DNA from: an uncultured Pseudomonadota bacterium
Lineage (GTDB): Bacteria > Pseudomonadota > Alphaproteobacteria > RF32 > CAG-239
Direction: 5' to 3'
Assembly (NCBI GenBank): GCA_949292335.1
Contig: CASEYY010000016.1
Span: forward strand, 16,922-80,921
DNA length: 64,000 nt
The notes under the pieces are model-generated. The model searched no databases. It saw nothing but the letters and a program-made list of their open reading frames with translations, and was not told the DNA's origin. The position numbers and the translations under genes are program-made. This document shows, one piece after another, positions 8,401 through 60,723 of this stretch. Each line of letters opens with the position of its first letter. The stretch's first letter is position 1.

Positions 8401-8487
8401 GCGGCCATGGCGGAATTGGTAGACGCGCAACCTTGAGGTGGTTGTGGGAGAACTCCCGTGAAGGTTCAAGTCCTTTTGGCCGCACCA
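8401..8487 (+). tRNA. tRNA-Leu(GAG), CCA encoded
   Basis: Folded by hand. Acceptor GCGGCCA/TGGCCGC, anticodon stem caacc/ggttg with loop ttGAGgt, long variable arm, T-loop ggttcaagtcc. Confidence 0.9.
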
Positions 8488-17317: not shown

Positions 17318-17405
17318 GGAGAGTTGGCAGAGTGGTAATGCAGCGGATTGCTAATCCGTCATCGGGAATACCGATGCACAGGTTCGAGTCCTGTACTCTC
17401 CGCCA
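17318..17405 (+). tRNA. tRNA-Ser(GCU), CCA encoded
   Basis: Acceptor GGAGAGT/ACTCTCC, anticodon loop ttGCTaa, long variable arm, T-loop ggttcgagtcc. Confidence 0.9.
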
Positions 17406-18582: not shown

Positions 18583-18658
18583 GGGTGCGTAGCTCAGTTG
18601 GTAGAGCAACTGACTCTTAATCAGTGGGTCTGGGGTTCGAACCCCCACGCGCCTACCA
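18583..18658 (+). tRNA. tRNA-Lys(CUU), CCA encoded
   Basis: 76-nt cloverleaf folded by hand: GGGTGCG acceptor, GCTC/GAGC D-stem, ACTGA-ctCTTaa-TCAGT anticodon arm, TGGGG-ttcgaac-CCCCA T-arm. Confidence 0.9.
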
Positions 18659-20037: not shown

Positions 20038-20127
20038 TGGCGGAGAGGCAGAGATTCGAACTCTGGGTGGGCTCGCACCCACGACGGTTTTCAAGACCGC
20101 TGCATTAAACCACTCTGCCACCTCTCC
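20038..20127 (-). tRNA. tRNA-Ser(UGA), CCA encoded
   Basis: The reverse complement folds as GGAGAGG acceptor, GCA/TGC D-stem, GCGGT-ctTGAaa-ACCGT anticodon arm, GTGGG..CCCAC variable arm, CAGAG-ttcgaat-CTCTG T-arm, then G-CCA. Confidence 0.9.
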
Positions 20128-40309: not shown

Positions 40310-40361
40310 ATATGCCTAAGGTTTGCCAATGGTGGTAAACCTTATTTTAATAATTGGACGG

Positions 40362-40367: not shown

Positions 40368-40411
40368 GCAAAATTGTGGTAATTTTTTATAAACAGGAAA
40401 GGTCTGTAGCA

Positions 40412-43006
40412 ATGACAAATAAATCAGTCAAAACAGCTAAAGATTTGGAAGCCTTGATTAAAAAAGTCAAAGAAGCTCAAAAGGTTTTTGCAACTTTTGA
40501 TCAAGAAACCGTAAATAAAATCTTTAAGGCTGCCGCAACCGCTGCCGATATGGCTCGTATTCCTTTGGCTAAAATGGCCGTTGAGGATACCGGTATGGGC
40601 GTAGTGGAAGATAAAATAATCAAAAACCATTTTGCCGCGGAATATATCTATAATAAATATAAAAATGAAAAAACCTGCGGAATTATTAAATCTGATAAGA
40701 CCAACGGTGTAAAAATCGTGGGCGAGCCTTTGGGCGTTATTGCCGGTGTGGTTCCTACAACCAATCCGACTTCTACAGCTATATTTAAGTCTTTAATCTG
40801 CTTAAAAACCAGAAATGCAATCATCTTTTCTCCGCATCCGAGAGCTAAAAAATCAACTATCGAAGCGGCTAAGGTAGTCTATGAAGCTGCTGTTAAAGCC
40901 GGTGCTCCGGAAAATATTATCGGATGGATTGATGAGCCTTCAATCGAATTGACCGATTTATTGATGACACATCCCGATATTCACGGTATCCTTGCTACCG
41001 GCGGTCCGGGAATGGTCAAAGCCGCATATTCTTCCGGCAAGCCGGCGTTGGGAGTCGGGGCAGGTAATGTACCGGCAATTATTGATGAGACCGCCGATGT
41101 CGAAATGGCCGTTTCTTATATTTTGATGTCAAAAACTTTTGATAACGGTATGATATGTGCCTCCGAACAGTCGGTCATTGCCTTGAAACCGGTATATGAA
41201 AAAGTTAAAAAAGAATTCGTATTCAGAGGAGCATATTTGCTTAATCAGAAAGAAGCCGAAAAATTATCTAAAATAATTTTGACACCCAAAGGTGTTAATC
41301 CGGAAATAGTTGGGCAGCCGGCGGTTAAAATCGCAAAAATGGCCGGAATTAATGTGCCGGATCATACTAAAATCCTTTTGGCCGAACAGACGGTTATTGA
41401 TGTGGCAAATCCGTATGCTCATGAAAAATTATCTCCTATTTTATCTTTGTATCAGGCAGATGATTTTGAAACGGCTGTCGAGAAAGCTTTGCACTTGGTC
41501 GAGTTGGGCGGTATGGGACATACTTCGGTGTTGTATACCGATACCAGAAAACAAGACAGAGTGGATTATTTTGCAAAAAAACTTCCGACCGGAAGATTGC
41601 TGATTAACTCTCCGTCTTCTCAAGGCGGTATCGGCGATTTGTTTAACTTTAGACTGGAACCTTCATTAACATTGGGTTGCGGCTCTTGGGGAGGAAACTC
41701 CGTGAGTGAAAATGTCGGAGTTAAACATTTGTTGAATTATAAAACCGTTGCCGAAAGGAGAGAAAATATGTTGTGGTTTAGAGTACCGCCAAAAATTTAT
41801 TTCAAACGCGGGGCAACGGATTTTGCCTTGCGTGAACTGGAAGGTAAAAAAAGAGCTTTCATCGTTACCGATCGTTATTTGTTTGATTCCGGTATGGTTA
41901 ATTCCATAACCAATGTGTTGGAAGAGATGAATATCGAGTATCAAATCTTCTTTGATGTTAAACCAGATCCGACAATCTCCACTATTGAAGAAGCCTTGGT
42001 TATGATCAATGTATTTAAACCGGATGTCTTCATTTCGTTCGGCGGCGGTTCGCCGATGGATGCCGCTAAAATCATGTGGCTTAAATATGAAAGACCGGAT
42101 ATTAAATTTGAAGATATTGCCATGCGGTTTATGGATATCAGAAAACGCATTTGTACAATCGGCGATTTGGGACAAAAAGCAATTATGGTTGCTATTCCCA
42201 CAACATCGGGTACCGGTTCGGAAGTTACTCCGTTTGCGGTTATTACCGATGATGAAAGTCATGTTAAATACGCAATCGCAGACTATGCATTAACTCCGAA
42301 TATGGCAATAGTTGATGCCAACTTTGTTGATAATATGCCTAAAGGTTTAACCTCCGCCGGCGGTATTGATGCTCTTGTGCATGCCATTGAGGCTTATGTT
42401 TCGGTGATGGCTACAAACTTTACCAATTCTGCCGCTTTGGAAGCTGCCAAACAAGTCGTGAGATATTTACCGCGAGCTTATAAAAATGGTGTTAATGACC
42501 CGGTGGCAAGAGAAAAAATGCATCATGCCGCAACTATTGCCGGTATGGCTTTTGCCAATGCTTTCTTAGGCTTATGTCACTCCATGGCTCACAAACTCGG
42601 TGCCGCATTTAATATCCCGCATGGCGTTGCCAATGCACTGCTGATTTGTCAGGTCATTAAATATAATGCCACGGATTGTCCGCGTAAACAGGCAATCTTT
42701 CCGCAATATAAAATGCCGGAGGCTAAAAAAAGATATGCTCAGATTGCCAGCAACTTAAAGCTTAAAGGTAAAACCGATGATGAAAAAGTTGCCGCGTTGA
42801 TTGATGCCATTGTTGAGTTGAAGAAGGAAATTGAAATTCCGGCTTCAATTAAAGAATGGGGCATTTCCAAAAAAGATTTTGAAGCCAAACTTGATTGGTT
42901 GGTGGAAAATGCTTTTGACGATCAATGCACGGGGGCAAATCCGGTATATCCGTTAATGGAAGATATCAGAAAAATTTATATGGATGCTTTTGAAGGTAAA
43001 ATATAA
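40412..43006 (+). CDS. adhE: Bifunctional acetaldehyde-CoA/alcohol dehydrogenase AdhE
   Basis: About 865 aa. The N-terminal ALDH domain has MICASEQS (catalytic Cys). The C-terminal iron-ADH domain has [10 protein letters not shown] and the [10 protein letters not shown] histidines. Start at the ATG at 40412, with an aggaaagg RBS. Confidence 0.95.
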
Positions 43007-43057: not shown

Positions 43058-43300
43058 ATGACTAGCAAAATTCAAATTTGTATGGGAAGCTCTTGCTTCG
43101 CTCGCGGTAACAGCAAAAATTTGCAGATTATTACCCAATATCTAAAAGATCATAATTTTGATGCTAAAGTGGAATTATCGGGATTAAGATGCTGTAACCA
43201 GTGTGCCAAAGGTCCTAATCTTACGATTGACGGGGTTGAGTATCATAATGTTGATGCCGGAACTTTGGTTGATATTTTAGATAAAGCTTTTAAGGAGTAA
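43058..43300 (+). CDS. Thioredoxin-like [2Fe-2S] ferredoxin (NuoE/HndA-type fold; HfsA-like position)
   Basis: 80 aa. Cys pattern C-x4-C ... C-x3-C (CMGSSC ... CCNQC). Confidence 0.7.
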   Translation: MTSKIQICMGSSCFARGNSKNLQIITQYLKDHNFDAKVELSGLRCCNQCAKGPNLTIDGVEYHNVDAGTLVDILDKAFKE

Positions 43301-43306
43301 TGTCCG

Positions 43307-45064
43307 ATGTCTAGCCGTGAACATCCTCTTTTTACCATTAAAAATGATTGTCAGGACTGTTATAAGTGTGTGAGAGAATGTCCGGTGAAGGCAATTAAAA
43401 TCGAAGATAATTCCGCTCAAATCGTACCGGAATTGTGCGTGGCCTGCGGTAAATGTTATAAAGTTTGTCCGGTCAGAGCTAAGCAAGACCGCGATGATGT
43501 ACCGCGTGTTAAAAATATGATTACAGCCGGAGAAAAAGTTTATATATCTCTGGCTCCGTCTTGGATTGCCGAGTTTGACAATACCACCAAAGAACAACTT
43601 CTTACGGCAATAAAAAAACTCGGGTTTGCCGGTGTAAGCGAAACCGCTTTGGGAGCAGAGGAAGTATCGACTCATGTGGCCGACTTCTTATCAGATAAAA
43701 AAGAGGGCGTTTTTCTTTCAACTGCTTGTCCGGCATTTGTTGAATACATAAACAAATATATGCCGGATTTAACCGCTGATTTAACTCCGGTGCTTTCGCC
43801 CGTGCTTGCCCATTGTAAGCTGATGCGTGATAAATTGGGGCAAGATATTAAAATTGTTTTTGTCGGTCCCTGTATTGCCAAAAAATTTGAAGCCGATCGT
43901 AATGCCGATTTATTGAACTCAAGTATTTCGTTCAGAGATCTGCGGCGTTGGTTTAGAGAAGCCGGGATTAATTATCATACAATCGAGCCGGAAAAAGAAA
44001 TTGATTTTATATACAAAAGAGCCGAAGAGGGGAGATACTACCCGATAGAAGGCGGTATGATAGAAACAATTAAACCGTACGGTAAAACTAATCATGTTTA
44101 TATGATGCAGTTAACCGGATTGGAAAATATTCAACGGGAATTGTCTGATATTAAAGGTTCAAGACCGGATTATCCGATTTTTATCGAATGTCTGGCTTGT
44201 GAGGGCGGGTGTGTTAACGGACCTTGTACCAGAAGTCACAAATCCGGTTTTGAAAAAAGAGCCAGAGTGCTTAAAGATGCACAGAAGACCAGTATGGCCG
44301 GAAAAAGAACTCCCGAAGAGGACATATCAAAAGATTATCAAGAAAAGCCCGTTGAGAACCACAACTATACCGAAGATCAGATAAAGCGGGTTTTGGCTAT
44401 GCTCGGTAAGTATACGGTTGAAGACGAAATTAACTGTAATGCCTGCGGCTATGATAACTGCCGTAATTTTGCCAAAGCCATATTAGATGGTAAGGCCGAA
44501 ATCGATATGTGTGTATCGCATATTAAACAGCAAGCTCAACGCAAGGCTAATGCTTTGCTTAAATGTATTCCCTCGCCGATTGTTATTGTCAATTCAAAAC
44601 TCTCGATTATTGAGTATAATGATTATTTTGTCAGCGAATTTTGGAATGATGAAGAACATAGTGATATCTACGATAAAAACAACCTTATCGGAGCCAATTT
44701 ACGCGATTTTGTAAGCTTTACCAATTTATTCTCCGCATCGCTTGATTTAGGCGAGGATGTCAAAAGAGAAAATGCCCGCAACAAAAGTAAACTCTACGAT
44801 GTTATGGTGTTTAATATCGAACAAAAACAAGTGGTCGGCGGGGTGATTGAAGATGTTACCAAGGTAGAAATTAAACGCGAAAAAATTGCCGAAAAAGCTA
44901 AAGAAGTTATTGAAAAGAATTTGGCAACCGTTCAACAAATCGCCTGTACTTTGGGTGAGCATATGGCTGAGACCGAAGTATTATTGCGTTCGATTGCCAA
45001 AGATTATGCCGCCGATGATTATGATAAACCAAATGTAACCATTCGCAACAAAAGGGATGATTAA
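43307..45064 (+). CDS. Sensory-type [FeFe]-hydrogenase-like protein with PAS domain (HydS / HfsB-like)
   Basis: Two CxxCxxCxxxCP motifs, then an H-cluster domain with LSTACPAF (Ala in place of the first Cys of TSCCP), VGPCIAKKFE and ECLACEGGCVNGP. Next comes CNACGYDNC-x16-C (Cx2Cx4Cx16C), then a ~150-aa PAS-like C-terminus. Confidence 0.8.
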   Translation: MSSREHPLFTIKNDCQDCYKCVRECPVKAIKIEDNSAQIVPELCVACGKCYKVCPVRAKQDRDDVPRVKNMITAGEKVYISLAPSWIAEFDNTTKEQLLTAIKKLGFAGVSETALGAEEVSTHVADFLSDKKEGVFLSTACPAFVEYINKYMPDLTADLTPVLSPVLAHCKLMRDKLGQDIKIVFVGPCIAKKFEADRNADLLNSSISFRDLRRWFREAGINYHTIEPEKEIDFIYKRAEEGRYYPIEGGMIETIKPYGKTNHVYMMQLTGLENIQRELSDIKGSRPDYPIFIECLACEGGCVNGPCTRSHKSGFEKRARVLKDAQKTSMAGKRTPEEDISKDYQEKPVENHNYTEDQIKRVLAMLGKYTVEDEINCNACGYDNCRNFAKAILDGKAEIDMCVSHIKQQAQRKANALLKCIPSPIVIVNSKLSIIEYNDYFVSEFWNDEEHSDIYDKNNLIGANLRDFVSFTNLFSASLDLGEDVKRENARNKSKLYDVMVFNIEQKQVVGGVIEDVTKVEIKREKIAEKAKEVIEKNLATVQQIACTLGEHMAETEVLLRSIAKDYAADDYDKPNVTIRNKRDD

Positions 45065-45066
45065 AA

Positions 45067-46242
45067 TTGAGCGATTCACTCTTTATTGAAATAGGCTCTT
45101 ATCAGGAACATAAAGCCTCCGAAAGTTGTTTCGGTGATGCTATACTTTCGGAAAAACTACCTGAGGAGCAAAGAATCATCTCTGTGTTATCCGATGGTTT
45201 GGGCAGCGGGGTAAAAGCAAATATCCTTTCATCTATGACCACCAGGATGGCAATGAAATTTGTTGAAAGTGATTTGGATTTGGTGCGTTCGGCCGAGGTT
45301 ATGATGCAGGCTTTGCCGGTGTGCCAAATCAGAAAAATAAGCTATGCGACTTTTTCAATAATTGATGCGACTTTGGAAGGTAAAACCCGCATTTATGAAA
45401 TGGATAATCCGCAATGTTTCGTGGTACGGGATTTCCAACAATACCATCCGGCTCACCATGAAATTTCTTCGGAAAACTGGAAAGACCGCATTATTAATGT
45501 TTATCAGTTTGTAGCCAAAGAAGAGGACAGAATAATCATTATGTCGGACGGAGTGACGCAGGCCGGACTCGGTAATCCTAAATATCCTCTCGGTTGGCAG
45601 AGAGACGGGGTGTGGAAATTTATTGAAAATCAGGTGCGTAGGCATCCGCATATTTCGGCAAAAGATTTGGCCGAAGCTATAGTAAAAGAAGCACTGACTA
45701 AAGAAAAAGACGGTAAGGCCGGAGATGATATCAGTTGTGTGGTGGTATATTACAGAAAGCCTCGCAAATTACTCCTCTTGAGCGGGCCGCCGTTCGATGA
45801 AGAAAAAGACCACGAAATTGCCGAAATGATCGACTATTATGATGGTAAAACCGCAATATGCGGCGGTACAACCGCTAATATAATCGAAAGAGAGCTTTGT
45901 CTTAAATGCGAAATGGATAAAACAAGTTTTGATCCCAATATTCCCATGGCTTCAATAATGCCGGGAATTGACCTCGTCACCGAAGGTATTCTTACTTTGA
46001 CCGAAGTTTATCGTATGCTGAAAGAAGGAATCGACGAGGATAAAGATAATGCGGCAACCAGATTAGCTAAGTTGCTGCTTGATTCCGATAAAATCGATTT
46101 TGTTATCGGAACCAAAATAAATGAAGCCCATCAAGACCCAAATTTACCGATGGAGCTTGACATTCGCCGAAATATTGTTAAAAAGATTTTTAGAATTTTG
46201 CAGAGTAAGTTCTTAAAAGAAATTACGGTAAAATATGTTTAA
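45067..46242 (+). CDS. PP2C/SpoIIE-family serine phosphatase with uncharacterised C-terminal domain (HfsC-like)
   Basis: CFGDA...VLSDGLGSGVKANILS...IIMSDGV...GDDISCVVV are PP2C metal-binding Asp blocks. About 160 extra C-terminal residues are of unknown fold. TTG start 2 nt after the hydS-like stop. Confidence 0.7.
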   Translation: MSDSLFIEIGSYQEHKASESCFGDAILSEKLPEEQRIISVLSDGLGSGVKANILSSMTTRMAMKFVESDLDLVRSAEVMMQALPVCQIRKISYATFSIIDATLEGKTRIYEMDNPQCFVVRDFQQYHPAHHEISSENWKDRIINVYQFVAKEEDRIIIMSDGVTQAGLGNPKYPLGWQRDGVWKFIENQVRRHPHISAKDLAEAIVKEALTKEKDGKAGDDISCVVVYYRKPRKLLLLSGPPFDEEKDHEIAEMIDYYDGKTAICGGTTANIIERELCLKCEMDKTSFDPNIPMASIMPGIDLVTEGILTLTEVYRMLKEGIDEDKDNAATRLAKLLLDSDKIDFVIGTKINEAHQDPNLPMELDIRRNIVKKIFRILQSKFLKEITVKYV

Positions 46243-46265: not shown

Positions 46266-46541
46266 ATGGAAAAAATACAGGTAAAAATCTGTGCCGGAAC
46301 TGCTTGCTTCGTAATGGGAGCTCCGCAAATACAGGCTTTGGAATTTTCTACTCCCGAGGATCTGGCCGATAAAATCGAAGTTACCGAAGTGAGATGTATG
46401 AATCACTGCTCGCAGGGTAAAGGGTATAATAAAGGACCTTTTGTCGAGGTTAACGGTGAGGTTATTGAAGAAGCCACCATGGAAAAAGTAATTACCAAAA
46501 TCAGAGATTTGATTGCCAAAGAGGAAGAAGAAAAGTGTTAA
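46266..46541 (+). CDS. Second thioredoxin-like [2Fe-2S] ferredoxin
   Basis: 91 aa. CAGTAC ... CMNHC (C-x4-C ... C-x3-C). Confidence 0.7.
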   Translation: MEKIQVKICAGTACFVMGAPQIQALEFSTPEDLADKIEVTEVRCMNHCSQGKGYNKGPFVEVNGEVIEEATMEKVITKIRDLIAKEEEEKC

Positions 46542-47986
46542 TACCTAAGAATTATGCCAACCAAATGCGTAGCCGCATCTTGGTTAAAGTTGTTGAAAGC
46601 TTTTATAAAGACAGATTTGAAAGTGCCGATGAGATTCCGATTGAAATGCGGCCGAAAGATTATGATTCAAGTCGTTGCTGTATCTATAAAGACAGAGCAA
46701 TCTTGAAATATCGTATGATGGCGGCAATGGGTTTTACTCCGCAAGAAGAAACCAATGAGGCTAAACAACTAAAGGATTATGGCAAAGAAGCCTTAAAAAG
46801 ACAAAACCATGCCAAGAGCTGTTTGGCGGTGATTGATATTGCTTGCTCGGCTTGCGTAAAATCTCAATATATGGTTACCGATGCTTGCCGCGGTTGTTTT
46901 GCTCGTCCTTGTGTTATGAACTGCCCTAAACAGGCTATTTCAATTATCAACGGTCGTTCGCACATAAATCCTGACCTGTGTGTGTCTTGCGGAAAATGTC
47001 TGGAAGTATGCCCTTATCATGCCGTGGTTAAGTTACCGGTACCTTGTGAAGAGGCTTGTCCGGTAGGAGCCATCCGTAAAGACGAACACGGTGTTGAGCA
47101 TATTAACGAAGAGACTTGTATCTCTTGCGGTAAATGCCTACAGTCTTGCCCGTTCGGAGCAATAGTCGAACGTTCACAACTGGTCGATGTTTTGAATTTA
47201 ATCCATAATACCGATAAAAAGGTTGTGGCCATGTTGGCTCCGGCTGTGGTTGGACAATTTCCGTTTGAAATTAATCAAGTGGTCGGGGCTTTGAAAAAAA
47301 TCGGTTTTGATGATGTGGTAGAAGTTGCCGCCGGTGCCGATGTTACTTCTAAAAATGAAGCCGCAGAGTTTATTGAAAGAATGAAAGAAGGGAAGAGCTT
47401 CATGACGACTTCTTGTTGTCCGGCTTATTACAGAGCTGCCGAAGTTCATATTCCGGAATTGAAACCTTTTGTCTCAAACACCAAAACACCGATGTATTAT
47501 GCCGCGGAAATGCTCAAGAAAGAGCAACCAGATTGCGTATCGGTATTCGTCGGTCCGTGTTTGGCCAAGAGATCGGAAGCCGAATACGATCCGAATGTGG
47601 ATTATGTTCTTACTTTTGAAGAAATCGGTGCAATGTTTGTTGGTGCAGGTGTTGAAATCGGTGATTGCGAACAGGCTCAGTTCGCTAAAGTTTCTTCGGC
47701 TCAAGGTCGTAATTATCCGCTGTCAGGCGGTGTGGCCGGTGCGGTTGGAAATTTGGTCGAAGGTGAAGTTGAATTCCGTCCGGAAAGGATTGACGGTTTG
47801 AGCAAAGAAAATATTAAATTGCTCAAAAAATATGCAACCAAAGGTTCGGAAAACAACATGATTGAAGTTATGTGTTGCGAGGGCGGATGTATTGCAGGCC
47901 CCGGTTGCATTGCCTTGGCTAAAAAAGCGGCTCGTCAGGTTGAAACCTATGTTGCTCAAGGTGTTAATCAAAAGGATATGAAGTAA
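46535..47986 (+). CDS. Catalytic [FeFe]-hydrogenase, group-B-like (HfsD/HydA2-like)
   Basis: Several Fe-S cluster motifs (CSAC..C, CVSCGKCLEVCP, CISCGKCLQSCP). All three H-cluster motifs are intact: TTSCCPAY, VGPCLAKRSE and EVMCCEGGCIAGPG. GTG start overlapping the ferredoxin stop. Confidence 0.85.
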   Translation: MLIPKNYANQMRSRILVKVVESFYKDRFESADEIPIEMRPKDYDSSRCCIYKDRAILKYRMMAAMGFTPQEETNEAKQLKDYGKEALKRQNHAKSCLAVIDIACSACVKSQYMVTDACRGCFARPCVMNCPKQAISIINGRSHINPDLCVSCGKCLEVCPYHAVVKLPVPCEEACPVGAIRKDEHGVEHINEETCISCGKCLQSCPFGAIVERSQLVDVLNLIHNTDKKVVAMLAPAVVGQFPFEINQVVGALKKIGFDDVVEVAAGADVTSKNEAAEFIERMKEGKSFMTTSCCPAYYRAAEVHIPELKPFVSNTKTPMYYAAEMLKKEQPDCVSVFVGPCLAKRSEAEYDPNVDYVLTFEEIGAMFVGAGVEIGDCEQAQFAKVSSAQGRNYPLSGGVAGAVGNLVEGEVEFRPERIDGLSKENIKLLKKYATKGSENNMIEVMCCEGGCIAGPGCIALAKKAARQVETYVAQGVNQKDMK

Positions 47987-48047: not shown

Positions 48048-49565
48048 CTAGTAACTTCTGGCGTAGATAACATCCATGGTTGCCGGTTTACCGGTCAAAA
48101 GACATTCTCCGGTAGTGCCGGATTGGTTGAAGGGAATGCAACGGATGGTAATCTTCATTTGCTTTAAGATTTCTTCCGTTTTGGGATCTCCGCACCATTT
48201 ACCGCGAACAAATGCAACCTTGCCTTGAGAGTCGTCTTCAATCCATTCGTTGGCATTGGCAAAATATTCGGCAAAGGCTTCTTTATCGGTAATGTCTTCG
48301 CGGATATTGCTCATCAACCTTTTTTGAGCTCTGGTGAACATTTCGTGTTGAATGTTTTCTAAGTATTGAGCAGCTTTGGCAATAAACTCGTCTTTAGACA
48401 CAACCTGTTTGCCTTCGGGAGTGTTGATATAAATTCTTTGACGCAACATCAAGTTGTTGCCTTCAACATCGCGTTTACCAATCTCCAAGATAATCGGAGC
48501 ACCTTTTCTGGTCCATTCCCAGAATTTGTCGATTGAAGATTTGTCTCTCTTGTCTAATTTTATTCTGATTTTTTCACCAAAAGGTGTTTGTTTGGCTAAA
48601 TCAGCTTGTAATTCTTTGATGTAGCTCATTACCAAGTCGCTGTCATCGGGGTTTTTGATTACCGGAACAATTACAATTTGGTAAGGTGCTATTTTGGGAG
48701 GAGTTACCATACCTTCATCATCGGCATGGGTCATAATGACACCTCCGATTAAGCGGGTGGAAACACCCCAAGAGGTCGTATAGGCGTATTCTTGCTTGTT
48801 TTCTTTATTTACAAAAGAAATATTGGCCGACTTGGCAAAATTTTGGCCTAAGAAATGTGAGGTTCCGGCTTGCAGGGCTTTACCGTCTTGCATCATAGCC
48901 TCAACACAATAGGTATCAACTGCTCCGGGGAATTTTTCATGCTCAGGTTTGCGGCCGGTTAATACGGGCATAGCCAAAGTTTGTTCGCACAACTCTTTGT
49001 AGGCATCGAGCATGGTTAAAGTTTCTTCTTCGGCTTCTTTAGCTGTTGAGTGAGCAGTATGTCCTTCTTGCCACAAAAATTCTCTGGTTCTTAAAAATAG
49101 GCGAGGTCTCATTTCCCAACGCACTACATTGGCCCACTGATTAATTAAAACCGGCAAATCGCGATAGGATTTTACCCATTTGGAAAAAGAATCGGCAATA
49201 ATGGCTTCGGAAGTAGGACGAACAATCAAAGGTTCTTCCAATTTGGAAGAGGGGACCAATTTACCGTCTTCCATGGCCAGACGCGAGTGCGTTACAACGG
49301 CCATTTCTTTGGCAAAACCGTCGACATGTTCGGCTTCTTTTTGGAAAAATGAAAGCGGAATAAACATCGGAAAATAGCAATTTTCGTGGTCGGTCGATTT
49401 GATTTTTTCGTCAAATACATCGCGAATTCTTTCCCAAATGCCATATCCCCATGGTTTGATTACCATACATCCCGGAGAAGATGAGTTTTCGGCCATGTCG
49501 GCTTCGGAAACTACATATTGATACCATTCGGGATAGTTGTCTTTTCTTAATTTTTTTAAACTCAT
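48048..49565 (-). CDS. proS: Prolyl-tRNA synthetase, archaeal/eukaryote-like type (no INS editing domain, C-terminal Zn-domain ending in Tyr)
   Basis: 505 aa with FLRTREFLWQEGHTAH and LQAGTSHFLGQNF class II motifs and a C-terminus ...DVIYARSY. Confidence 0.9.
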   Translation of the reverse strand: MSLKKLRKDNYPEWYQYVVSEADMAENSSSPGCMVIKPWGYGIWERIRDVFDEKIKSTDHENCYFPMFIPLSFFQKEAEHVDGFAKEMAVVTHSRLAMEDGKLVPSSKLEEPLIVRPTSEAIIADSFSKWVKSYRDLPVLINQWANVVRWEMRPRLFLRTREFLWQEGHTAHSTAKEAEEETLTMLDAYKELCEQTLAMPVLTGRKPEHEKFPGAVDTYCVEAMMQDGKALQAGTSHFLGQNFAKSANISFVNKENKQEYAYTTSWGVSTRLIGGVIMTHADDEGMVTPPKIAPYQIVIVPVIKNPDDSDLVMSYIKELQADLAKQTPFGEKIRIKLDKRDKSSIDKFWEWTRKGAPIILEIGKRDVEGNNLMLRQRIYINTPEGKQVVSKDEFIAKAAQYLENIQHEMFTRAQKRLMSNIREDITDKEAFAEYFANANEWIEDDSQGKVAFVRGKWCGDPKTEEILKQMKITIRCIPFNQSGTTGECLLTGKPATMDVIYARSY

Positions 49566-50122: not shown

Positions 50123-50662
50123 TTAGAATTGTTCTTGTAATTCAAAGAAGTAAGCTTGCGGGTGATCGCAAACCGGGCATTTGGCCGGTGCAGACGGGGA
50201 TTCTACACGATGTCCGCAGTTGGCACATTCCCAAATAACTTTGGTCGGACGTTCAAAGATTTTGCCTTCTTCCAAAGATTTTAATAATGCTTGATATCTT
50301 TCTTCGTGGCCTTTTTCGATTTTGGCTACTTGCTCAAACAAAAATGCAATCTTGTCAAAACCTTCTTCTTTGGCTTCTCTGGCCATACGAGCGTACATAT
50401 CGGTCCATTCGTAGTTTTCTCCGGCAGCAGCATCTTTTAAGTTGGTCAAGGTTGTGGGAACTTCACCGCCGTGCAACAATTTGAACCAAATTTTGGCGTG
50501 TTCTTTTTCGTTGTTGGCGGTTTGCTCAAATTTATCGGCTATTATGTTGTAGCCTTCTTTTTTGGCTTTGGAAGCATAGTAAGTGTATTTGTTGCGGGCT
50601 TGTGATTCGCCGGCAAAGGCTTCCATCAAGTTTTTTTCGGTCTTTGAACCTTTGAGTTCCAT
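50123..50662 (-). CDS. Rubrerythrin
   Basis: The N-terminus [23 protein letters not shown] belongs to a ferritin-like diiron domain. The C-terminus is a CANCGH...CPVCDHP rubredoxin-like domain. Confidence 0.9.
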
Positions 50663-50680
50663 AAGTTTTCTCCTTTAATG

Positions 50681-51073
50681 TTAGTTGTTTGAGTTTTTTA
50701 GACAGTCGGGGCAAAGTCCGGAAAATGATATTTCCATGTCCTCAACCGTCAAACCTTGTTGCTTTAGAATGCTTTGCTTTATTTCCGGTATGATATTGGT
50801 CTCAATATCGAAAATTTTTAAGCATTTTGAGCAGACAAAATGATAATGCTTTTCGGTGCAATAATCAAAATGCAACACATTATCTATATAATCAAGTTTT
50901 TTTATTATTCCATTTTCCGCTAACTGATTGAGATTGCGATATACGGTCGCAAGGCTTATGTCGGGCAGCTGCTCTTTTACCATGGCAAAAACTTGCTCTG
51001 CCGTTGGATGGCAGGGATTGTTTTGCAAGACCTCCAGTATTAAAGAACGTTGTTTGGAAAATTTCATCTTCAT
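50681..51073 (-). CDS. Fur-family regulator, PerR-like by context
   Basis: 130 aa with a winged-helix block (ISLATVYRNLNQL), HFVCSKC and CPDC zinc motifs. It lies directly upstream of rubrerythrin and divergent from the flavodiiron gene. Confidence 0.8.
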   Translation of the reverse strand: MKMKFSKQRSLILEVLQNNPCHPTAEQVFAMVKEQLPDISLATVYRNLNQLAENGIIKKLDYIDNVLHFDYCTEKHYHFVCSKCLKIFDIETNIIPEIKQSILKQQGLTVEDMEISFSGLCPDCLKNSNN

Positions 51074-51089
51074 TTCCTGTGTATAAAAA

Positions 51090-51104
51090 TGATAATGATT
51101 ATTA
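51090..51104. promoter_or_regulatory. Fur/PerR-type 7-1-7 operator
   Basis: TGATAAT-G-ATTATTA shows one mismatch from the TGATAATnATTATCA inverted repeat. It sits in the divergent perR-like / flavodiiron intergenic region. Confidence 0.55.
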
Positions 51105-51188
51105 GTTTTAGAAAAAATATTTTATCTTGTCAATCAAAATAAAAAGATTATCTTATCAGCAATGACTTAATTTTTGAGGAGAACACAG

Positions 51189-52370
51189 ATGAATGCCGTA
51201 GAAATAAAAAAAGATGTATATTGGGTCGGGGTTAAAGACTGGAATTTGAGAGAATTCCATGGTTATAACACTCCGGACGGTTCAACTTATAACAGCTATT
51301 TAATTATGGATGATAAGATTACTTTGGTCGACGGAGTCAAAGCTTATTTAACGCATGAGCAAATTGCCAGAGTAAAGTCTATGGTCGATTTTTCAAAAAT
51401 ATCTTATGTAGTGGTAAACCACGTTGAACAAGATCACTCAGGCAGTATTCCTGAGATTATGAAACTTGCTCCGCAAGCCGTTATTGTTACCAACTCGGCC
51501 GGTAAAATGGCTTTGGAGGCTCATTTTGATACAACGGGTTGGCAATATCACATTGTTAAAACCGGCGACAGCCTAAATATCGGGAAACGCAATTTGAGCT
51601 TTTTGACAACTCCGATGTTGCACTGGCCGGATTCAATGATGACTTATGTGGCCGAAGATAAATTGTTGTTGCCTAACGACGGGTTTGGTCAACATTTGTG
51701 CTGTGAAGCCTTGTTGGTCAAAGATTATCCGAATGATTTGGTTATGAAAGCGGCAAAAAGTTATTACGCCAATATTTTGCTGCCCTACGGACAACAAGCC
51801 GAAAAAGCTTTGTCAGCGGCCGGTGAAATGAAGCTTGATATTGATATGATTGCACCGTCTCACGGTTTGATTTGGTCCGGAAAAGAAGAAGTTAATCAGA
51901 TACTTGGAGCATATGCTTCTTGGGCTAAGAGTGAGACAACTCATAAGGCCGTTATTGTTTATGATACGATGTGGGGCGCTACCGCAAAATTGGCAGAAAC
52001 CGCTATGGCAGAATTCCAAGATGCCGGTATCAATGTGGTAAAATATAATTTGGGTATTAGCCACATTTCCGATGTTATTACCGATGTGTTGGATGCCGAA
52101 TATGTATTAATCGGTAATCCGACCCTTAATAACCAGATGTTCCCGCGAGTTGCCGCCTTTGTTACTTATATGAAAGGACTGGCTCCTAAGGGTAAGAAAG
52201 GTTTGGCTTTTGGTTCTTACGGATGGCGTCCGGGAGTGGTTAAAGAAATTAAACAAGTTATGGACGATTTGGGCTGGAAAACCGCAGATGTATTCGAAGA
52301 AAAATATACGCCGAAATCTGATGTGTTGAGCCAATTTGCTCAAAGAGTAAAAGAGTTTATCAGCCTTTGA
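51189..52370 (+). CDS. Flavodiiron protein (FprA-type O2/NO reductase)
   Basis: The MBL-like domain has the VVNHVEQDHSGS (HxExDH) diiron motif, and a C-terminal flavodoxin-like domain follows. Start at the ATG at 51189 after a gaggag RBS. Confidence 0.85.
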   Translation: MNAVEIKKDVYWVGVKDWNLREFHGYNTPDGSTYNSYLIMDDKITLVDGVKAYLTHEQIARVKSMVDFSKISYVVVNHVEQDHSGSIPEIMKLAPQAVIVTNSAGKMALEAHFDTTGWQYHIVKTGDSLNIGKRNLSFLTTPMLHWPDSMMTYVAEDKLLLPNDGFGQHLCCEALLVKDYPNDLVMKAAKSYYANILLPYGQQAEKALSAAGEMKLDIDMIAPSHGLIWSGKEEVNQILGAYASWAKSETTHKAVIVYDTMWGATAKLAETAMAEFQDAGINVVKYNLGISHISDVITDVLDAEYVLIGNPTLNNQMFPRVAAFVTYMKGLAPKGKKGLAFGSYGWRPGVVKEIKQVMDDLGWKTADVFEEKYTPKSDVLSQFAQRVKEFISL

Positions 52371-56556: not shown

Positions 56557-59500
56557 ATGTCGGACAAGACTACTGACAAGGCTGCAGCTTTGCCGCAGTT
56601 TATGAAAGAAAATACAACTTCTTTTGAAATCGAAGAAAAAGAATCTTGGCTTAATCACAATTTGCATAAGTTAATGATCGCAATCAGTGTTATTTGGTTT
56701 GCCGTCGTACTAATCTATGTCACCCAGTTTTTTGGTTGGTCAAATCTGTTTTTGATGATGCCGGATGAATTCGGAGGCTTTTTAGCCGGTGTAACACTGC
56801 CTTTGGCCATAATATGGGTGGTGATGGCTTATATTGATCGAGGTTCGGCCTTTAATAAAGAAGCTAAGTTCTTGCGTGCTTATATGAACCAATTAGTTTA
56901 TCCTGAAGACGGTGCTCCCCAAACCGCTAAGGCTATGGCTGATGCTATTCGTTCTCAAGTGGTAGAACTGCAACAAGTTTCAAAGTTGGCTCATGAACAA
57001 ACTTCCCAGATTAAAGATGCCATTAAAGAAAATGTTGACGATTTTGCCAAACTTGTCGCCAAGTTGGATAATTATTCCTCAAAAACAATCGTTGAACTTA
57101 GTGATGGCGTCAAATTCTTAACCGCGAACTTTGAAAATATTTTAAGCCGAGCTCAGACATCAACCCAAAATTTGGCACAGATAAATCGTGAATTCATTAA
57201 TGGAGGAAATGATATAGAAGAAGTCTTGGGACGGATGTTTGCCAAGATTGTTCCTTGCCTTAATGAAATTAAAGAAACTTCCGAATCCTTGAGAAATGTT
57301 ACCGATAACTCGGCCGAAGATATTGTAAAAGCTAATGAAAGTTTGCAAGTATTCGTTGAAAAAACAAATGCCTCAATGACTGCTATGCGAAATTTACTTG
57401 AGGCTCAAATCGGTGCCTTGAAACAAGTGGCTGATAAAACAAAATCTAACAGCGATGAAATGAAATCAACTTTGACTTCAGAAATAAACGAATTTGATGA
57501 AATTATTCAAAAACACGGGCAAAAGCTTAATCAAATACTTATTGAAGCTGAGAAAACCGCTAAAGAAAAAACAGATGATCTTGCAAAAGCCGCTTTGGCT
57601 AATATCGGAATCATCAATAATTCCATTAAAAACGGAATGGATGGAATAGGTGATGCCGTCGGTGTTCAGATCGGCAGAATGGATGAAGCCTTGGTCAAAA
57701 ATAACCGTGATATCGCGGCTTTTATTAAGTCTTTGGATGATAAAGCCGAAAATATCAATAAGAAATTTGCCGCTCACGGCGAATTAATGGCTCAAGAACT
57801 CGATAAACTTATGGTCAGAAGTGCTAACTTAGAAGAAGCTATTGCTGTTAGAGTAGCTAATCTCGGCGGCATTTCGGAAAAAGCAATAACGGCCATGAAA
57901 CAAGTCGATGACGCCCTAAATGCAAATTTGGCTAATTTGGATGAAAAGGTTTTGGCTGCAAATAACGACATCTTATCATACACTAGTACTTTACAAGAAA
58001 AAACTTCCGACTTCGAAAGAATTTCCGCTGATAGTGCCGATAAAGTTTTGGATTTGACCGAGGTATTGAATAAACGGTACGAATATTTGCAAAAAGTCAC
58101 GGCCGATGGTTTGAAACAGTTGCAAAACGCCGATAAGGAAATTAATTCGGCAACCGAAAATCTAATCGTACAGACAGCCCAATCGGTGGAAAATATAAAT
58201 AAAATATCAGAAGTTATGCAGAAAAATACCAATAACCTTAATGAGGCTTCGTCAGTGGTGGTGATGCAAAGTCAAGTCAGTGAGGCTTCTTTGTCTCAAC
58301 AGCAAAAGCTCATTACCGATACAGCTGCTCGGGTCGAAGGTATTAAAAATGAACTTAAACGACAAATAAACGACTTAACCTCAGCATCCGATGAATTGGA
58401 AAAAGATGCCGCCAAATTGCTCGATAATGTTAAGTCTAATATTGCTAAAATGTTAACCCAGTGTAATGACGCCATTAATAAGAGTAAAGCTATAAATGAT
58501 AATCTGTCTGAGCAGGCAAATATGTTTGATACTTCGGCAAATCGAACTATGGCAAAGGTTACACAATTTGAGAATACTCTGCTTAAACAATCTCAAAATA
58601 TGGAAACTCTGGCGAAAACCATTGCCGAAAAATCGGAAGAAATCGGAAAAACTTTGGATTCCCATACGACAAAACTATCAGATGCCTCTAACGAAACCGA
58701 AGCTATGTTGTCTAAATCAATATCAGAGTTTGAGACCAAAAGCGATAGTATTAACAATATATCGCAAAATGCCGCGTCTTTAATCCAAAATACCATAATC
58801 GGTTTGGATGATAAAATGGCCGCACTGACAATGTTGTTGAAACAACAGGAAGGGGATTTCTATGCGTATTGTGTCAAAGTACAAGAAAACACCGATAAAA
58901 TGGCCGATGTCTTGAAAAAACAAATGTCAAGTGTTGAAGACGGAGCCGATAAATTGTTTGCCAAGTTGGTAATCTTAGAAGATGATACCGGAAGAAGAGC
59001 TGATACGATAGCAGAAAATTCCCAAAAATCAGTGGAAAAATTAACCGAAATCGAAAAATCTCTGACCGAAAAGCACTCTTTGATTGAAAAAACAGTCGAT
59101 TTTGCATTGGATAAAATGAAAAATGCAAATGAACTTATCGAAAACGGATTGGAAAAATTCGGTGATACGGTAGACGGCATAAAAGCAACCACAACCAATA
59201 CACTAAAAGATCTTAGTGTTAATTCGGCTCAGTTGAAAACCATTCACGAAAAAGTTCTCCAAGAAGGTGAAACCTTGCAGCATAATCTGGAAAGTCAGAT
59301 TAAATATGCCGAAAATGCAGGCGTTAAGTTATCGTCGCAAAACAAAAATATTGCCGATATGTTGGAAATGCAGAAAAATACTATTACCGAGGTGGTTAAT
59401 ACTTTGGCTACACAGGCCAGACTCGGAGAAGCATCATTGGCTCAACAATATAAGTATCTCACCGATGCAACGGTTGAAGCCACTGCAAAATTGCAAGAAA

Positions 59501-60723
59501 TCAATGCCGTATTTAATGGTAATACCGGTGAGATTTTTGAAACTACAAATAAACTCTCGTATGAGTTTGAAGTATTGGGCGATAGGTTATTAAAAGCTTG
59601 TGACGCCATTAATAAGGCTTCAAAAGATTCGGTGAAAAATGTTGACCAGATAAGCCTAAGACTAAATCAATGCAGCGAGGAACTGGATACGACAATTTAT
59701 CACTCGGTGGAAAATATCGGTAGCGTGTTTAACGAATATGAAAAATATGTTGCCGGTTTTAACACAATAACCGCAGAAACATCTACCGGAGTGGTCGAAG
59801 TAAACAATCTTATTTCGGCTCAAAGTGATAAAATGCTTAAAATATCAAATGATGCCAAAAAGTTGGTCGATTGCTTCAACAATGTTTTGAGTGATATTGC
59901 CAATCAGTTATCTAACAAAGCCAACGAAGCTTACGACAAGGTTAACGGATTAGGGCAGGATCTTAAAAAACTCAGCCTTGAAATGGACGATGCGGCTAAG
60001 CTTAGTGCTACACATCTGGAAAAATCAGGTGATAAAATGCGGGCGGCAATAAATGAAATAGCCTCCAACGCCGAAAGAATTTCTAATACCATTCTGTCTT
60101 CCGGAGAGGTCTTTATTAAACAGTCTGGTGCCTTAACGGCTATTGCCGACGAAACGGCCGCTAAAGTTAATGATAGTATTGAAAATATGGTAAATGCCGG
60201 CAAAATTTTTGAAAAACAGGGCGAAGAAATTGTTAAAGGCAGTATCCGGTTTAATGATACCGTTAATACTCAAACCCAAATCTTAAGCGAATGCTCAGGT
60301 AAGGCCGAAAAAGCAATGAGAGCACTATCAAATACCTACAAAGATATTGATGTCGATACTTTCTTGAAAGATGCCGGAAAAATAATATCTGCTCTGGAAA
60401 GTATATCGGTCGATATTAATCGCTTGCTTAATCCCAAAGATGAAGAAGATTTATGGAAAAAGTTTTATAACGGTGATACCCAAATATTTGTCAGAACTAT
60501 TGCTAAAAATATGACTAATACTCAAGTGACAGCCTTACGCAAAGAATTAGAAAAAAATGCCGAATTGCGTCGTTTGGTCGGATTGTATCTGAGCGAATTC
60601 GAAGGATTGGTCGAAAAGTCAAAGAATCACGAATATTCGGCAGCTTTGATGGCGGTCATTTCCGGTGCAGATCTGGGAAAGTTGTACTATGTGCTGGCAA
60701 AAGCTCTTAATAAACTAAATTAA
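56557..60723 (+). CDS. Giant (1388 aa) membrane-anchored coiled-coil protein, function unknown
   Basis: Two N-terminal TM helices (LMIAISVIWFAVVLIYVTQFF, FLAGVTLPLAIIWVVMAYI) precede ~1100 aa of E/K/N/Q/S/L-rich helical sequence. A distinct ~170-aa C-terminal domain follows (DLWKKFYNGDTQIFVRTIAKNM...). Confidence 0.8.
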   Translation: MSDKTTDKAAALPQFMKENTTSFEIEEKESWLNHNLHKLMIAISVIWFAVVLIYVTQFFGWSNLFLMMPDEFGGFLAGVTLPLAIIWVVMAYIDRGSAFNKEAKFLRAYMNQLVYPEDGAPQTAKAMADAIRSQVVELQQVSKLAHEQTSQIKDAIKENVDDFAKLVAKLDNYSSKTIVELSDGVKFLTANFENILSRAQTSTQNLAQINREFINGGNDIEEVLGRMFAKIVPCLNEIKETSESLRNVTDNSAEDIVKANESLQVFVEKTNASMTAMRNLLEAQIGALKQVADKTKSNSDEMKSTLTSEINEFDEIIQKHGQKLNQILIEAEKTAKEKTDDLAKAALANIGIINNSIKNGMDGIGDAVGVQIGRMDEALVKNNRDIAAFIKSLDDKAENINKKFAAHGELMAQELDKLMVRSANLEEAIAVRVANLGGISEKAITAMKQVDDALNANLANLDEKVLAANNDILSYTSTLQEKTSDFERISADSADKVLDLTEVLNKRYEYLQKVTADGLKQLQNADKEINSATENLIVQTAQSVENINKISEVMQKNTNNLNEASSVVVMQSQVSEASLSQQQKLITDTAARVEGIKNELKRQINDLTSASDELEKDAAKLLDNVKSNIAKMLTQCNDAINKSKAINDNLSEQANMFDTSANRTMAKVTQFENTLLKQSQNMETLAKTIAEKSEEIGKTLDSHTTKLSDASNETEAMLSKSISEFETKSDSINNISQNAASLIQNTIIGLDDKMAALTMLLKQQEGDFYAYCVKVQENTDKMADVLKKQMSSVEDGADKLFAKLVILEDDTGRRADTIAENSQKSVEKLTEIEKSLTEKHSLIEKTVDFALDKMKNANELIENGLEKFGDTVDGIKATTTNTLKDLSVNSAQLKTIHEKVLQEGETLQHNLESQIKYAENAGVKLSSQNKNIADMLEMQKNTITEVVNTLATQARLGEASLAQQYKYLTDATVEATAKLQEINAVFNGNTGEIFETTNKLSYEFEVLGDRLLKACDAINKASKDSVKNVDQISLRLNQCSEELDTTIYHSVENIGSVFNEYEKYVAGFNTITAETSTGVVEVNNLISAQSDKMLKISNDAKKLVDCFNNVLSDIANQLSNKANEAYDKVNGLGQDLKKLSLEMDDAAKLSATHLEKSGDKMRAAINEIASNAERISNTILSSGEVFIKQSGALTAIADETAAKVNDSIENMVNAGKIFEKQGEEIVKGSIRFNDTVNTQTQILSECSGKAEKAMRALSNTYKDIDVDTFLKDAGKIISALESISVDINRLLNPKDEEDLWKKFYNGDTQIFVRTIAKNMTNTQVTALRKELEKNAELRRLVGLYLSEFEGLVEKSKNHEYSAALMAVISGADLGKLYYVLAKALNKLN

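Follow-up and report, generated by a model that had tools for sequence, protein, structure and literature searches.

A probable regulatory [FeFe]-hydrogenase encoded between adhE and a group B hydrogenase gene in an uncultured alphaproteobacterium

Introduction

Does an [FeFe]-hydrogenase whose proton relay is broken turn over H2, or does it report on it? The question is raised by hydS, an open reading frame (ORF) of 585 aa with an ATG start (positions 43307..45064, + strand) in a stretch of 64,000 nucleotides from an uncultured bacterium of the alphaproteobacterial lineage CAG-239 (assembly GCA_949292335.1, contig CASEYY010000016.1, positions 16,922 to 80,921; hereafter the window). A first-pass annotation of these letters had proposed a sensor of H2 or of the redox state, and ORF, domain, and alignment analyses led us to the same name, a putative sensory [FeFe]-hydrogenase. 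We regard it as likely that the product of hydS is a regulatory ("sensory") [FeFe]-hydrogenase of the M2f or group C3 type, the view that the protein is a sensor rather than an enzyme being a hypothesis for the whole HydS family that is drawn from analogy.

The M2f enzymes, a subclass of group C, are defined by N-terminal clusters, an H-domain, a Cx2Cx4Cx16C motif, and a PAS domain, with C299 and the other elements of the group A proton pathway unconserved, and their genes are often co-located with other hydrogenase genes (PMC8163306, PMC13104023). In HydDB, group C is divided into kinase-linked, chemotaxis-linked, and phosphatase-linked (C3) subtypes (PMC5037454). No paper on HydS in alphaproteobacteria was found in the literature library that we searched, which is not proof of novelty; an earlier study of the [FeFe]-hydrogenases of gut alphaproteobacterial metagenome-assembled genomes (MAGs) dealt with catalytic types and maturases and left sensory enzymes unmentioned (PMC4967309).

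The H-Cluster Domain and Its Active Site

The H-cluster domain of HydS (residues 76-306; 43532..44224, + strand) was recognized by PF02906 with E = 1.3e-47. It follows a ferredoxin-like domain with two CxxCxxCxxxCP [4Fe-4S] motifs (residues 12-58; 43340..43480, + strand) that matched Fer4 families of Pfam. In the AlphaFold2 model the H-domain reached a predicted local distance difference test score (pLDDT) of about 90, and its top Foldseek matches were [FeFe]-hydrogenases.

HMMER alignments placed residues 138-145 (STACPAFV) onto TSCCPGWV of the Clostridium pasteurianum hydrogenase CpI, free of gaps around this first motif, with A140 (codon 43724..43726, + strand) at the position of the proton-relay Cys299 and C141 at that of the ligand Cys300. 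The first-pass annotation had read the motif as LSTACPAF with its first Cys replaced by Ala; the alignment to CpI bears this out, Ala140 indeed occupying the relay position. The CpI C299A mutant (6gly) was the second-best PDB match of HydS. The four ligand Cys of the H-cluster, C141, C189, C298, and C302, align with CpI C300, C355, C499, and C503 and are invariant, as are all other Cys and motif residues, in 30 close HydS homologues. Because of this invariance across aligned sequences, the motif features of HydS are not attributable to chance.

The second and third motifs (VGPCIAKKFE and ECLACEGGCVNGP) had been described as retained. This holds for the ligands C189, C298, and C302, but not for the two Met that frame the [2Fe] site, which are replaced by Gly and Leu. 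The second-sphere residues of HydS are G187 (CpI M353), Y245 (F417), L296 (M497), and A140 (C299), and the position of CpI S319, a variable column in the family, is taken by T160. The relay residues E279 and E282 correspond to V124 and F127 in the alignments to CpI and to H123 and D126 in the alignment to Thermoanaerobacter kivui HydA, in which a one-residue gap is placed differently; neither pair is conserved at these positions in the HydS family, for which 98 full-length representatives were used in all residue counts given below. Judging from the alignments, the canonical proton relay is dismantled in HydS, with Cys299 changed to Ala and both relay Glu unconserved, and the predicted protein carries every residue needed for the H-cluster and three accessory [4Fe-4S] clusters.

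Some alphaproteobacterial HydS (P0066, P0072, P0104, and P0112) contain low-complexity insertions of 10-50 residues just N-terminal of motif 1; the window HydS is without those seen at columns 130-180 of our alignment A1.

The C-Terminal Cluster, PAS Domain, and Terminal Helix

Downstream of the H-domain, PF04060 (the "FeS" family) matched residues 375-403 with E = 4.7e-10. The additional cluster site that had been noticed there, CNACGYDNCRNFAKAILDGKAEIDMC, has exactly the spacing C377-x2-C380-x4-C385-x16-C402 (44435..44512, + strand) and thus corresponds to a C-terminal Cx2Cx4Cx16C [4Fe-4S] motif. The last Cys is followed by 183 aa, in which a divergent PAS domain (residues ~415-518; 44549..44860, + strand) is indicated by Pfam matches of orthologues, by a profile search, and by the topology of the AlphaFold2 model. 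Among 19 aligned orthologues from three phyla (alignment A2), PAS_8 matched 10 (best E = 1.3e-6), PAS_9 nine, and PF00989 six, the aligned C-terminal region being the only one free of other domains in these proteins; precomputed matches to PF00989 or PF13426 also exist for many relatives of the Ruminococcus albus type. A profile built from the C-terminal 180 aa of 13 orthologues (A3) and searched against all PDB sequences gave as its three top matches the cytoplasmic PAS domain of DcuS (2w0n, E = 0.0013) and the PAS domain of CitA (5fq1 and 8bjp, E = 0.005), with Aer2 PAS scoring 0.08. The matches cover profile positions 12-114, which correspond to HydS residues ~415-518. The modeled topology of this region is PAS-like, with strands at 425-429 and 433-437, helices, and strands at 485-492, 495-505, and 508-515 (pLDDT 65-84). 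A Foldseek search with the whole model returned only [FeFe]-hydrogenases among its best 50 matches and is no independent test of the PAS fold.

The first-pass annotation had seen a PAS-like region of about 150 aa. That a PAS domain is present is supported by the orthologue matches, the PDB profile, and the AlphaFold2 model, but the core is shorter: by sequence and model, the C-terminal region of HydS consists of a predicted PAS core of ~105 aa and a helix of ~40 aa. This conserved helix (residues 526-566; 44882..45004, + strand), which AlphaFold2 predicts with low pLDDT, bears the motif VQxIAxxLGE....T and has no family assignment. Its residues Q543, A546, L549, G550, and E551 are kept in 93-98 of the 98 representatives (G550 in all of them), and Thr or Ser stands at position 556 in 92. 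Segment conservation was 0.68 for the C-terminal cluster motif and 0.64 for the terminal helix, against 0.49 for the H-domain. Since the cluster motif and the helix are the most conserved segments of the family, the C-terminal end of HydS is suggested to be a functionally constrained output, and the helix may be an output or partner-binding element.

Model quality depended on the alignment supplied. A first AlphaFold2 run with 30 alphaproteobacterial sequences had a mean pLDDT of 61 and an unusable C-terminal third; with an alignment of 51 sequences to which Firmicutes had been added, the terminal helix and the N-terminal ferredoxin domain still stayed below 50.

Family Census and Classification

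The C-terminal 226 aa of HydS were searched against 1.84 billion cluster representatives. Matches numbered 869 with an E-value of at most 1e-3, of which 544 stayed within 1e-10 and 136 within 1e-30. Almost all of the full-length matches have the module at residues 355-570 of proteins of 555-630 aa, which corresponds to the same architecture. All four Cys of the C-terminal cluster are present in every representative of the residue census, and each of the eight N-terminal Cys in 96-98 of them. The column of CpI C299 holds Ala in 82/98 (84%), Cys in five, and Ser in four; Gly fills the M353 column in 83, Tyr the F417 column in 79, and Leu the M497 column in 83. The signature A/G/Y/L of the window protein is the commonest one (61/98), and the Lys at the position of CpI K358 (K192 in HydS) is kept in 89/98. 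The relay Cys is kept in the HydS of R. albus and of Monoglobus pectinilyticus and in four of the seven Bacteroidales orthologues of alignment A2. The window HydS is thereby a typical member of a well-populated family; what is new is confined to the lineage of its host, mildly so, and to the missing linkage to a kinase gene.

The sequence features by which group C, or M2f, is described were all found in HydS: two [4Fe-4S] motifs, the H-domain, Cx2Cx4Cx16C, PAS, and an unconserved proton pathway. Because a SpoIIE/PP2C gene adjoins hydS, it corresponds to the phosphatase-linked C3 type of HydDB. In a classification with NCBIfam models the protein stayed below the cut-offs for both alternatives, with 199.9 bits against 450 for group B (TIGR04105, FeFe_hydrog_B1) and 95.1 bits against 405.95 for group A (TIGR02512; motifs STACP, GPC, and L296). 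We rejected groups A and B on these scores and on the separate clade formed by the co-encoded group B enzymes, and group D (M2e) on the presence of PAS and of Gly187 at the M353 position, following published criteria (PMC8163306). Gly at M353 was also tried as a marker of group C and discarded; because the co-encoded group B enzymes share this Gly, it separates HydS only from groups A and D. By its predicted domains and the adjoining phosphatase gene, HydS would clearly be placed in group C (M2f), as a protein of the C3 kind. The first-pass annotation had let the loss of the relay Cys, together with Cx2Cx4Cx16C and PAS, define this group. The domain order stands, but the loss of the Cys is typical rather than defining, because R. 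albus HydS keeps it.

Gene Neighborhood

hydS is the second gene of a five-gene unit in the order 2Fe-2S protein, hydS, SpoIIE/PP2C, 2Fe-2S protein, and group B hydrogenase, all on the + strand and separated by 2-23 nt or overlapping. The first gene (43058..43300), which ends 6 nt 5' of hydS, encodes a small thioredoxin-like [2Fe-2S] protein of 80 aa (Cx4C...CCx2C; PF01257, 3.6e-9). Two nucleotides past hydS starts the gene of a SpoIIE/PP2C-family Ser/Thr phosphatase of 391 aa (45067..46242; PF07228, 1.8e-11), which resembles SpoIIE structures and in whose sequence the metal-site motifs DGxGxG, SDG, and DD are visible. Its C-terminal extension of ~160 aa (residues ~229-391, 45751-46242) matched no Pfam family and is kept as far as the R. 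albus orthologue, with which residues 2-388 could be aligned; a signal from HydS may be received by this domain. A second small thioredoxin-like [2Fe-2S] protein of 91 aa (46266..46541; PF01257, 3.5e-7) overlaps by 7 nt the start of hydB (46535..47986), a group B (B1) monomeric [FeFe]-hydrogenase gene (TIGR04105, 541.8 bits, cut-off 450). The hydB product keeps TSCCP, with Cys at the C299 position, Ser in the S319 column, and Met in the M497 column, and is likely to be the catalytic, regulated enzyme.

Directly upstream of the unit lies adhE (40376..43006, + strand), a bifunctional aldehyde/alcohol dehydrogenase gene with Pfam matches to Aldedh, Fe-ADH, and ADH_Fe_C, whose true start is likely the ATG at 40412. 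No terminator was found in the 51-nt gap between adhE and the first 2Fe-2S gene, and adhE is probably co-transcribed with the hydS genes downstream. A terminator-like hairpin lies at 40317-40344, between msbA and adhE; the promoter and terminator scans did not rise above the shuffled background, and this hairpin upstream of adhE was their only notable result. Matches to the Rex operator TTGTGAAN6TTCACAA with up to three mismatches numbered six in the window, against 7.4 expected by chance, and none was upstream of adhE or hydS.

Relatives, Operon Conservation, and Lateral Spread

The proteins nearest to HydS, at 58-96% identity, are encoded in gut and rumen MAGs that bear the titles "Alphaproteobacteria bacterium," "Azospirillum sp.," or "Rhodospirillales." They are followed by Bacteroidales (37-47%) and then by Firmicutes (~31-33%), among them R. 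albus 7, on plasmid pRUMAL01, and M. pectinilyticus. Wherever the contig of an alphaproteobacterial MAG locus extends far enough, all five genes of the unit are there, and the Bacteroidales loci share the core 2Fe-2S-hydS-PP2C, five of them with a group B hydrogenase downstream as well. A small 2Fe-2S homologue stands directly 5' of hydS in 38/39 related loci, a placement also seen in R. albus and M. pectinilyticus; hydS is linked to the phosphatase gene in 35/39, the contig ending at or within hydS in the remaining four. The second 2Fe-2S gene is conserved in the alphaproteobacterial loci and in some of the Bacteroidales loci.

The linkage to adhE is more variable. adhE lies directly upstream only in the subclade with at least 77% identity, and the unit of the more distant alphaproteobacterial loci is isolated, with divergent neighbors on either side. 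In two Bacteroidales MAG loci (L033:9461-12016 and L036:6663-9218) adhE is inserted within the operon, with the PP2C/2Fe-2S genes on one side and the group B hydrogenase gene on the other. adhE and hydS are linked in three phyla, in three different arrangements.

In a neighbor-joining tree of the ferredoxin and H-domains, all HydS formed one clade and all co-encoded group B enzymes another. Within this tree, which covered HydS proteins and co-encoded group B enzymes, the window HydS grouped with those of R. albus and M. pectinilyticus. The branching inside the two clades agrees, Alphaproteobacteria being joined with Bacteroidales to the exclusion of Firmicutes, and because of this agreement we suggest, from the sequences, that the operon was inherited and laterally spread as a unit.

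Lateral spread could also mean that hydS is an inactive relic of an acquired operon, with no current function in its host, and the distance to the nearest relatives outside the clade (~40% for Bacteroidales, ~31% for Firmicutes) does suggest such spread. This explanation is nonetheless barely credible. The reading frame is uninterrupted and strongly conserved across 27 MAG loci whose identity goes down to 58%, the ligands are invariant, no part of the protein is better conserved than the output region at its C terminus, and the G+C content is the same as that of the surroundings.

Alternatively, HydS could have a structural or catalytic part in an H2-evolving hydrogenase of several subunits, of the "Hfs-type" and made of HydS, the 2Fe-2S proteins, and HydB, in which the PAS domain and the phosphatase would only fine-tune activity after translation and no H2 would be sensed for gene expression. 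Such a complex would agree with genes that are close or overlapping and always co-inherited, with the common topology of the HydS and HydB trees, with the first description of hfsABCD as the main hydrogenase of Thermoanaerobacterium saccharolyticum, whose deletion lowers H2 (PMC5707799, PMC11837493), and with the measurable activity of T. maritima HydS (TmHydS; PMC10055695). We nevertheless consider it unlikely: deletion of hfsB alone raised hydrogenase activity and changed adhE transcripts, which is a regulatory rather than a catalytic phenotype (PMC5707799), HfsD alone restores the phenotype (PMC11837493), and the proton relay is dismantled in HydS.

Proposed Function

The mechanism that we favor for a regulatory HydS is put together by analogy with the HydS of R. 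albus and T. maritima and with Thermoanaerobacterium HfsB. The H-cluster would react slowly with H2, its redox or conformational state reporting the ambient H2 level, and the small 2Fe-2S protein would probably exchange electrons with HydS. This state would be passed through the C-terminal cluster, the PAS domain, and the helix to the phosphatase, which would alter the phosphorylation of some target and could in this way set the amount or the activity of the group B hydrogenase and of AdhE. The disposal of reducing equivalents would then be switched between H2 and ethanol by the H2 pressure in the gut. Two published systems are in line with this scheme. Deletion of hfsB in Thermoanaerobacterium raises adhE transcripts, alcohol dehydrogenase activity, and ethanol yield, an effect that needs hfsC and hfsD (PMC5707799, PMC11837493), and in R. 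albus the hydA2 transcript is 90-fold lower and ethanol is lower when a syntrophic partner removes H2 (PMC10838669).

Several observations weigh against a sensory HydS, at the level of the protein, of its locus, and of its relatives. The window protein alone has no significant Pfam match to a PAS domain (PAS_9, E = 0.09-0.15, although the whole model was spanned), and the model of its C-terminal third is of low confidence. No hydEFG maturase genes were found among the genes of the window, and homologues of Rex and of the R. albus-type kinase were found nowhere in these 64 kb, so that the phosphatase has no visible partner or target here. Among characterized relatives, TmHydS still catalyzes H2 turnover (PMC10055695), the C-terminal cluster of the group D protein TamHydS is unresponsive to H2 (PMC13104023), and signal transduction is a hypothesis for every member of the HydS family.

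Some of these observations could also be read in favor of a protein whose Fe-S clusters respond not to H2 but to the cellular redox state, as set by the ferredoxin pool, or to O2. Its H-domain would perhaps hold only the [4Fe-4S] subcluster or serve as a redox-responsive module. The four cluster sites of HydS and the dedicated 2Fe-2S partner encoded alongside would suit such a role, as would the absence of maturase genes from the window and the failure of H2 to reduce the C-terminal cluster of TamHydS (PMC13104023). Yet the conservation of the four H-cluster Cys and of the Lys at K358 (K192, 89/98) can hardly be accounted for unless a [2Fe] subsite is present, a functional H-cluster is bound by both TmHydS and TamHydS (PMC10055695, PMC8163306), and HydEFG are encoded by related gut alphaproteobacterial MAGs (PMC4967309). 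A redox or O2 sensor thus seems to us rather improbable, and we retain H2 as the putative signal of HydS.

A bolder version of the regulatory reading can be formulated in which the HydS-PP2C pair of these gut alphaproteobacteria works without a dedicated kinase or Rex. The terminal helix would be a docking site for the phosphatase or a phospho-site, and the pair a self-contained, H2-gated partner switch that controls the group B hydrogenase and AdhE of the same transcript post-translationally, carried on a laterally acquired operon shared with Bacteroidales. We offer it as a speculation with a small chance of being right.

If HydS is regulatory, the H2-responsive control module of HydS, PP2C, and a group B hydrogenase would extend beyond the rumen and thermophilic Firmicutes in which it is known to uncultured Alphaproteobacteria of gut and rumen, where its operon is intact and strongly conserved; in the window it is physically joined to adhE. 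This supports the idea that gut fermenters of several phyla share one device for choosing between H2 and ethanol as electron sink, with relevance for H2 cycling in the gut and for methane in the rumen. No mechanistic question is raised beyond those that the family already poses, on the route of the signal out of HydS and on the substrate of the phosphatase.

Other Genes in the Window

The rest of the window is the ordinary chromosome of a Gram-negative anaerobe. Its G+C content is even, at ~40%, and hydS does not differ from the surrounding sequence. Other genes encode MsbA, a ParC of the Gram-negative type, a SurA-like protein, PBP5, rubrerythrin, a flavodiiron protein, PGI, MutL, and MetRS. 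Four tRNA genes were the only Rfam matches in the window (8401-8484, 17318-17402, and 18583-18655 on the + strand and 20041-20127 on the - strand). The largest gene, an ORF of 1388 aa (56557-60723, + strand), matched no Pfam family at E <= 1e-4.

Downstream of hydB, proS converges on the unit from the opposite strand. The encoded prolyl-tRNA synthetase (ProRS; 48048-49565, - strand) scored 477.5 bits with the NCBIfam model proS_fam_I (cut-off 437) and ~100 bits with proS_fam_II and PRK12325. The proS_fam_I enzymes are the archaeal/eukaryote-like type of ProRS, which would be unexpected in an alphaproteobacterium, and the gene may be another laterally acquired one or a hint on the true affiliation of the lineage. 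An oxidative-stress cluster as found in anaerobes lies at 50123-52370, with genes for rubrerythrin (50123-50662, - strand) and a Fur-family regulator (50681-51073, - strand) that are divergent from that of a flavodiiron, flavorubredoxin-like protein (51174-52370, + strand).

Comparison With Known Systems

The regulatory [NiFe]-hydrogenases HoxBC/HupUV with the PAS kinase HoxJ follow an analogous logic, in which a low-activity hydrogenase reports H2 through PAS-linked phospho-signaling that controls hydrogenase genes (PMC5707799, PMC8163306). Their metal site and fold are unrelated to those of HydS, and they use a histidine kinase and response regulator, not PP2C, so that the likeness is one of analogy only.

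TamHydS of Thermoanaerobacter mathranii (group D, M2e) shares with the window HydS the N-terminal clusters, the lack of the relay Cys, the C-terminal Cx2Cx4Cx16C motif, and Leu at the M497 position (PMC8163306). Group D, however, has no PAS domain and has Ser or Thr at M353 (PMC8163306), whereas the window protein has PAS and Gly187. TmHydS, the biochemically characterized enzyme of group C/M2f, belongs to the same architecture class. On the residue identities quoted in PMC10055695, it shares Ala (A131), Gly (G177), and Tyr (Y223) with the window HydS but has Ser (S267) at the M497 position, where the latter has Leu (PMC10055695).

In T. saccharolyticum, hfsABCD is described as encoding a PAS-containing HfsB, then the Ser phosphatase HfsC and the ferredoxin-linked HfsD (PMC11837493), an order like that in the window. 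hfsB is genetically linked to adhE expression and ethanol yield (PMC5707799), which fits the adjacency of adhE to our unit. This organism is a thermophilic Firmicute with adhE outside the hfs operon, and the likeness is by description only.

The fullest comparison is that with R. albus 7. In its HydS (pRUMAL01, WP_013483411) we recovered the same order of two [4Fe-4S] motifs, H-domain, Cx2Cx4Cx16C, PAS, and terminal helix. The R. albus protein has Cys at C299 and Ser at M497, where the window HydS has Ala and Leu; its first motif and that of M. pectinilyticus (L039:6977-8650 and L040:5974-7653, respectively) read SSCCHS, with the relay Cys kept and His in place of Pro after the ligand Cys, unlike the Ala-Cys-Pro pattern found in most of the HydS family. 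Identity to R. albus amounts to 32% for HydS and 30% for the phosphatase, both over the full length, 36% for hydB and HydA2, and 59% for adhE. The R. albus locus is annotated as rex, adhE, a "phosphotransferase" (kinase), 2Fe-2S, 2Fe-2S, hydS (558 aa), a SpoIIE phosphatase, and hydA2. Both 2Fe-2S genes are thus upstream of hydS in R. albus, whereas in the window one is upstream and the other lies between the PP2C gene and hydB. Every gene of the R. albus unit other than rex and the phosphotransferase gene has a homologue in the window, where the order is the same.

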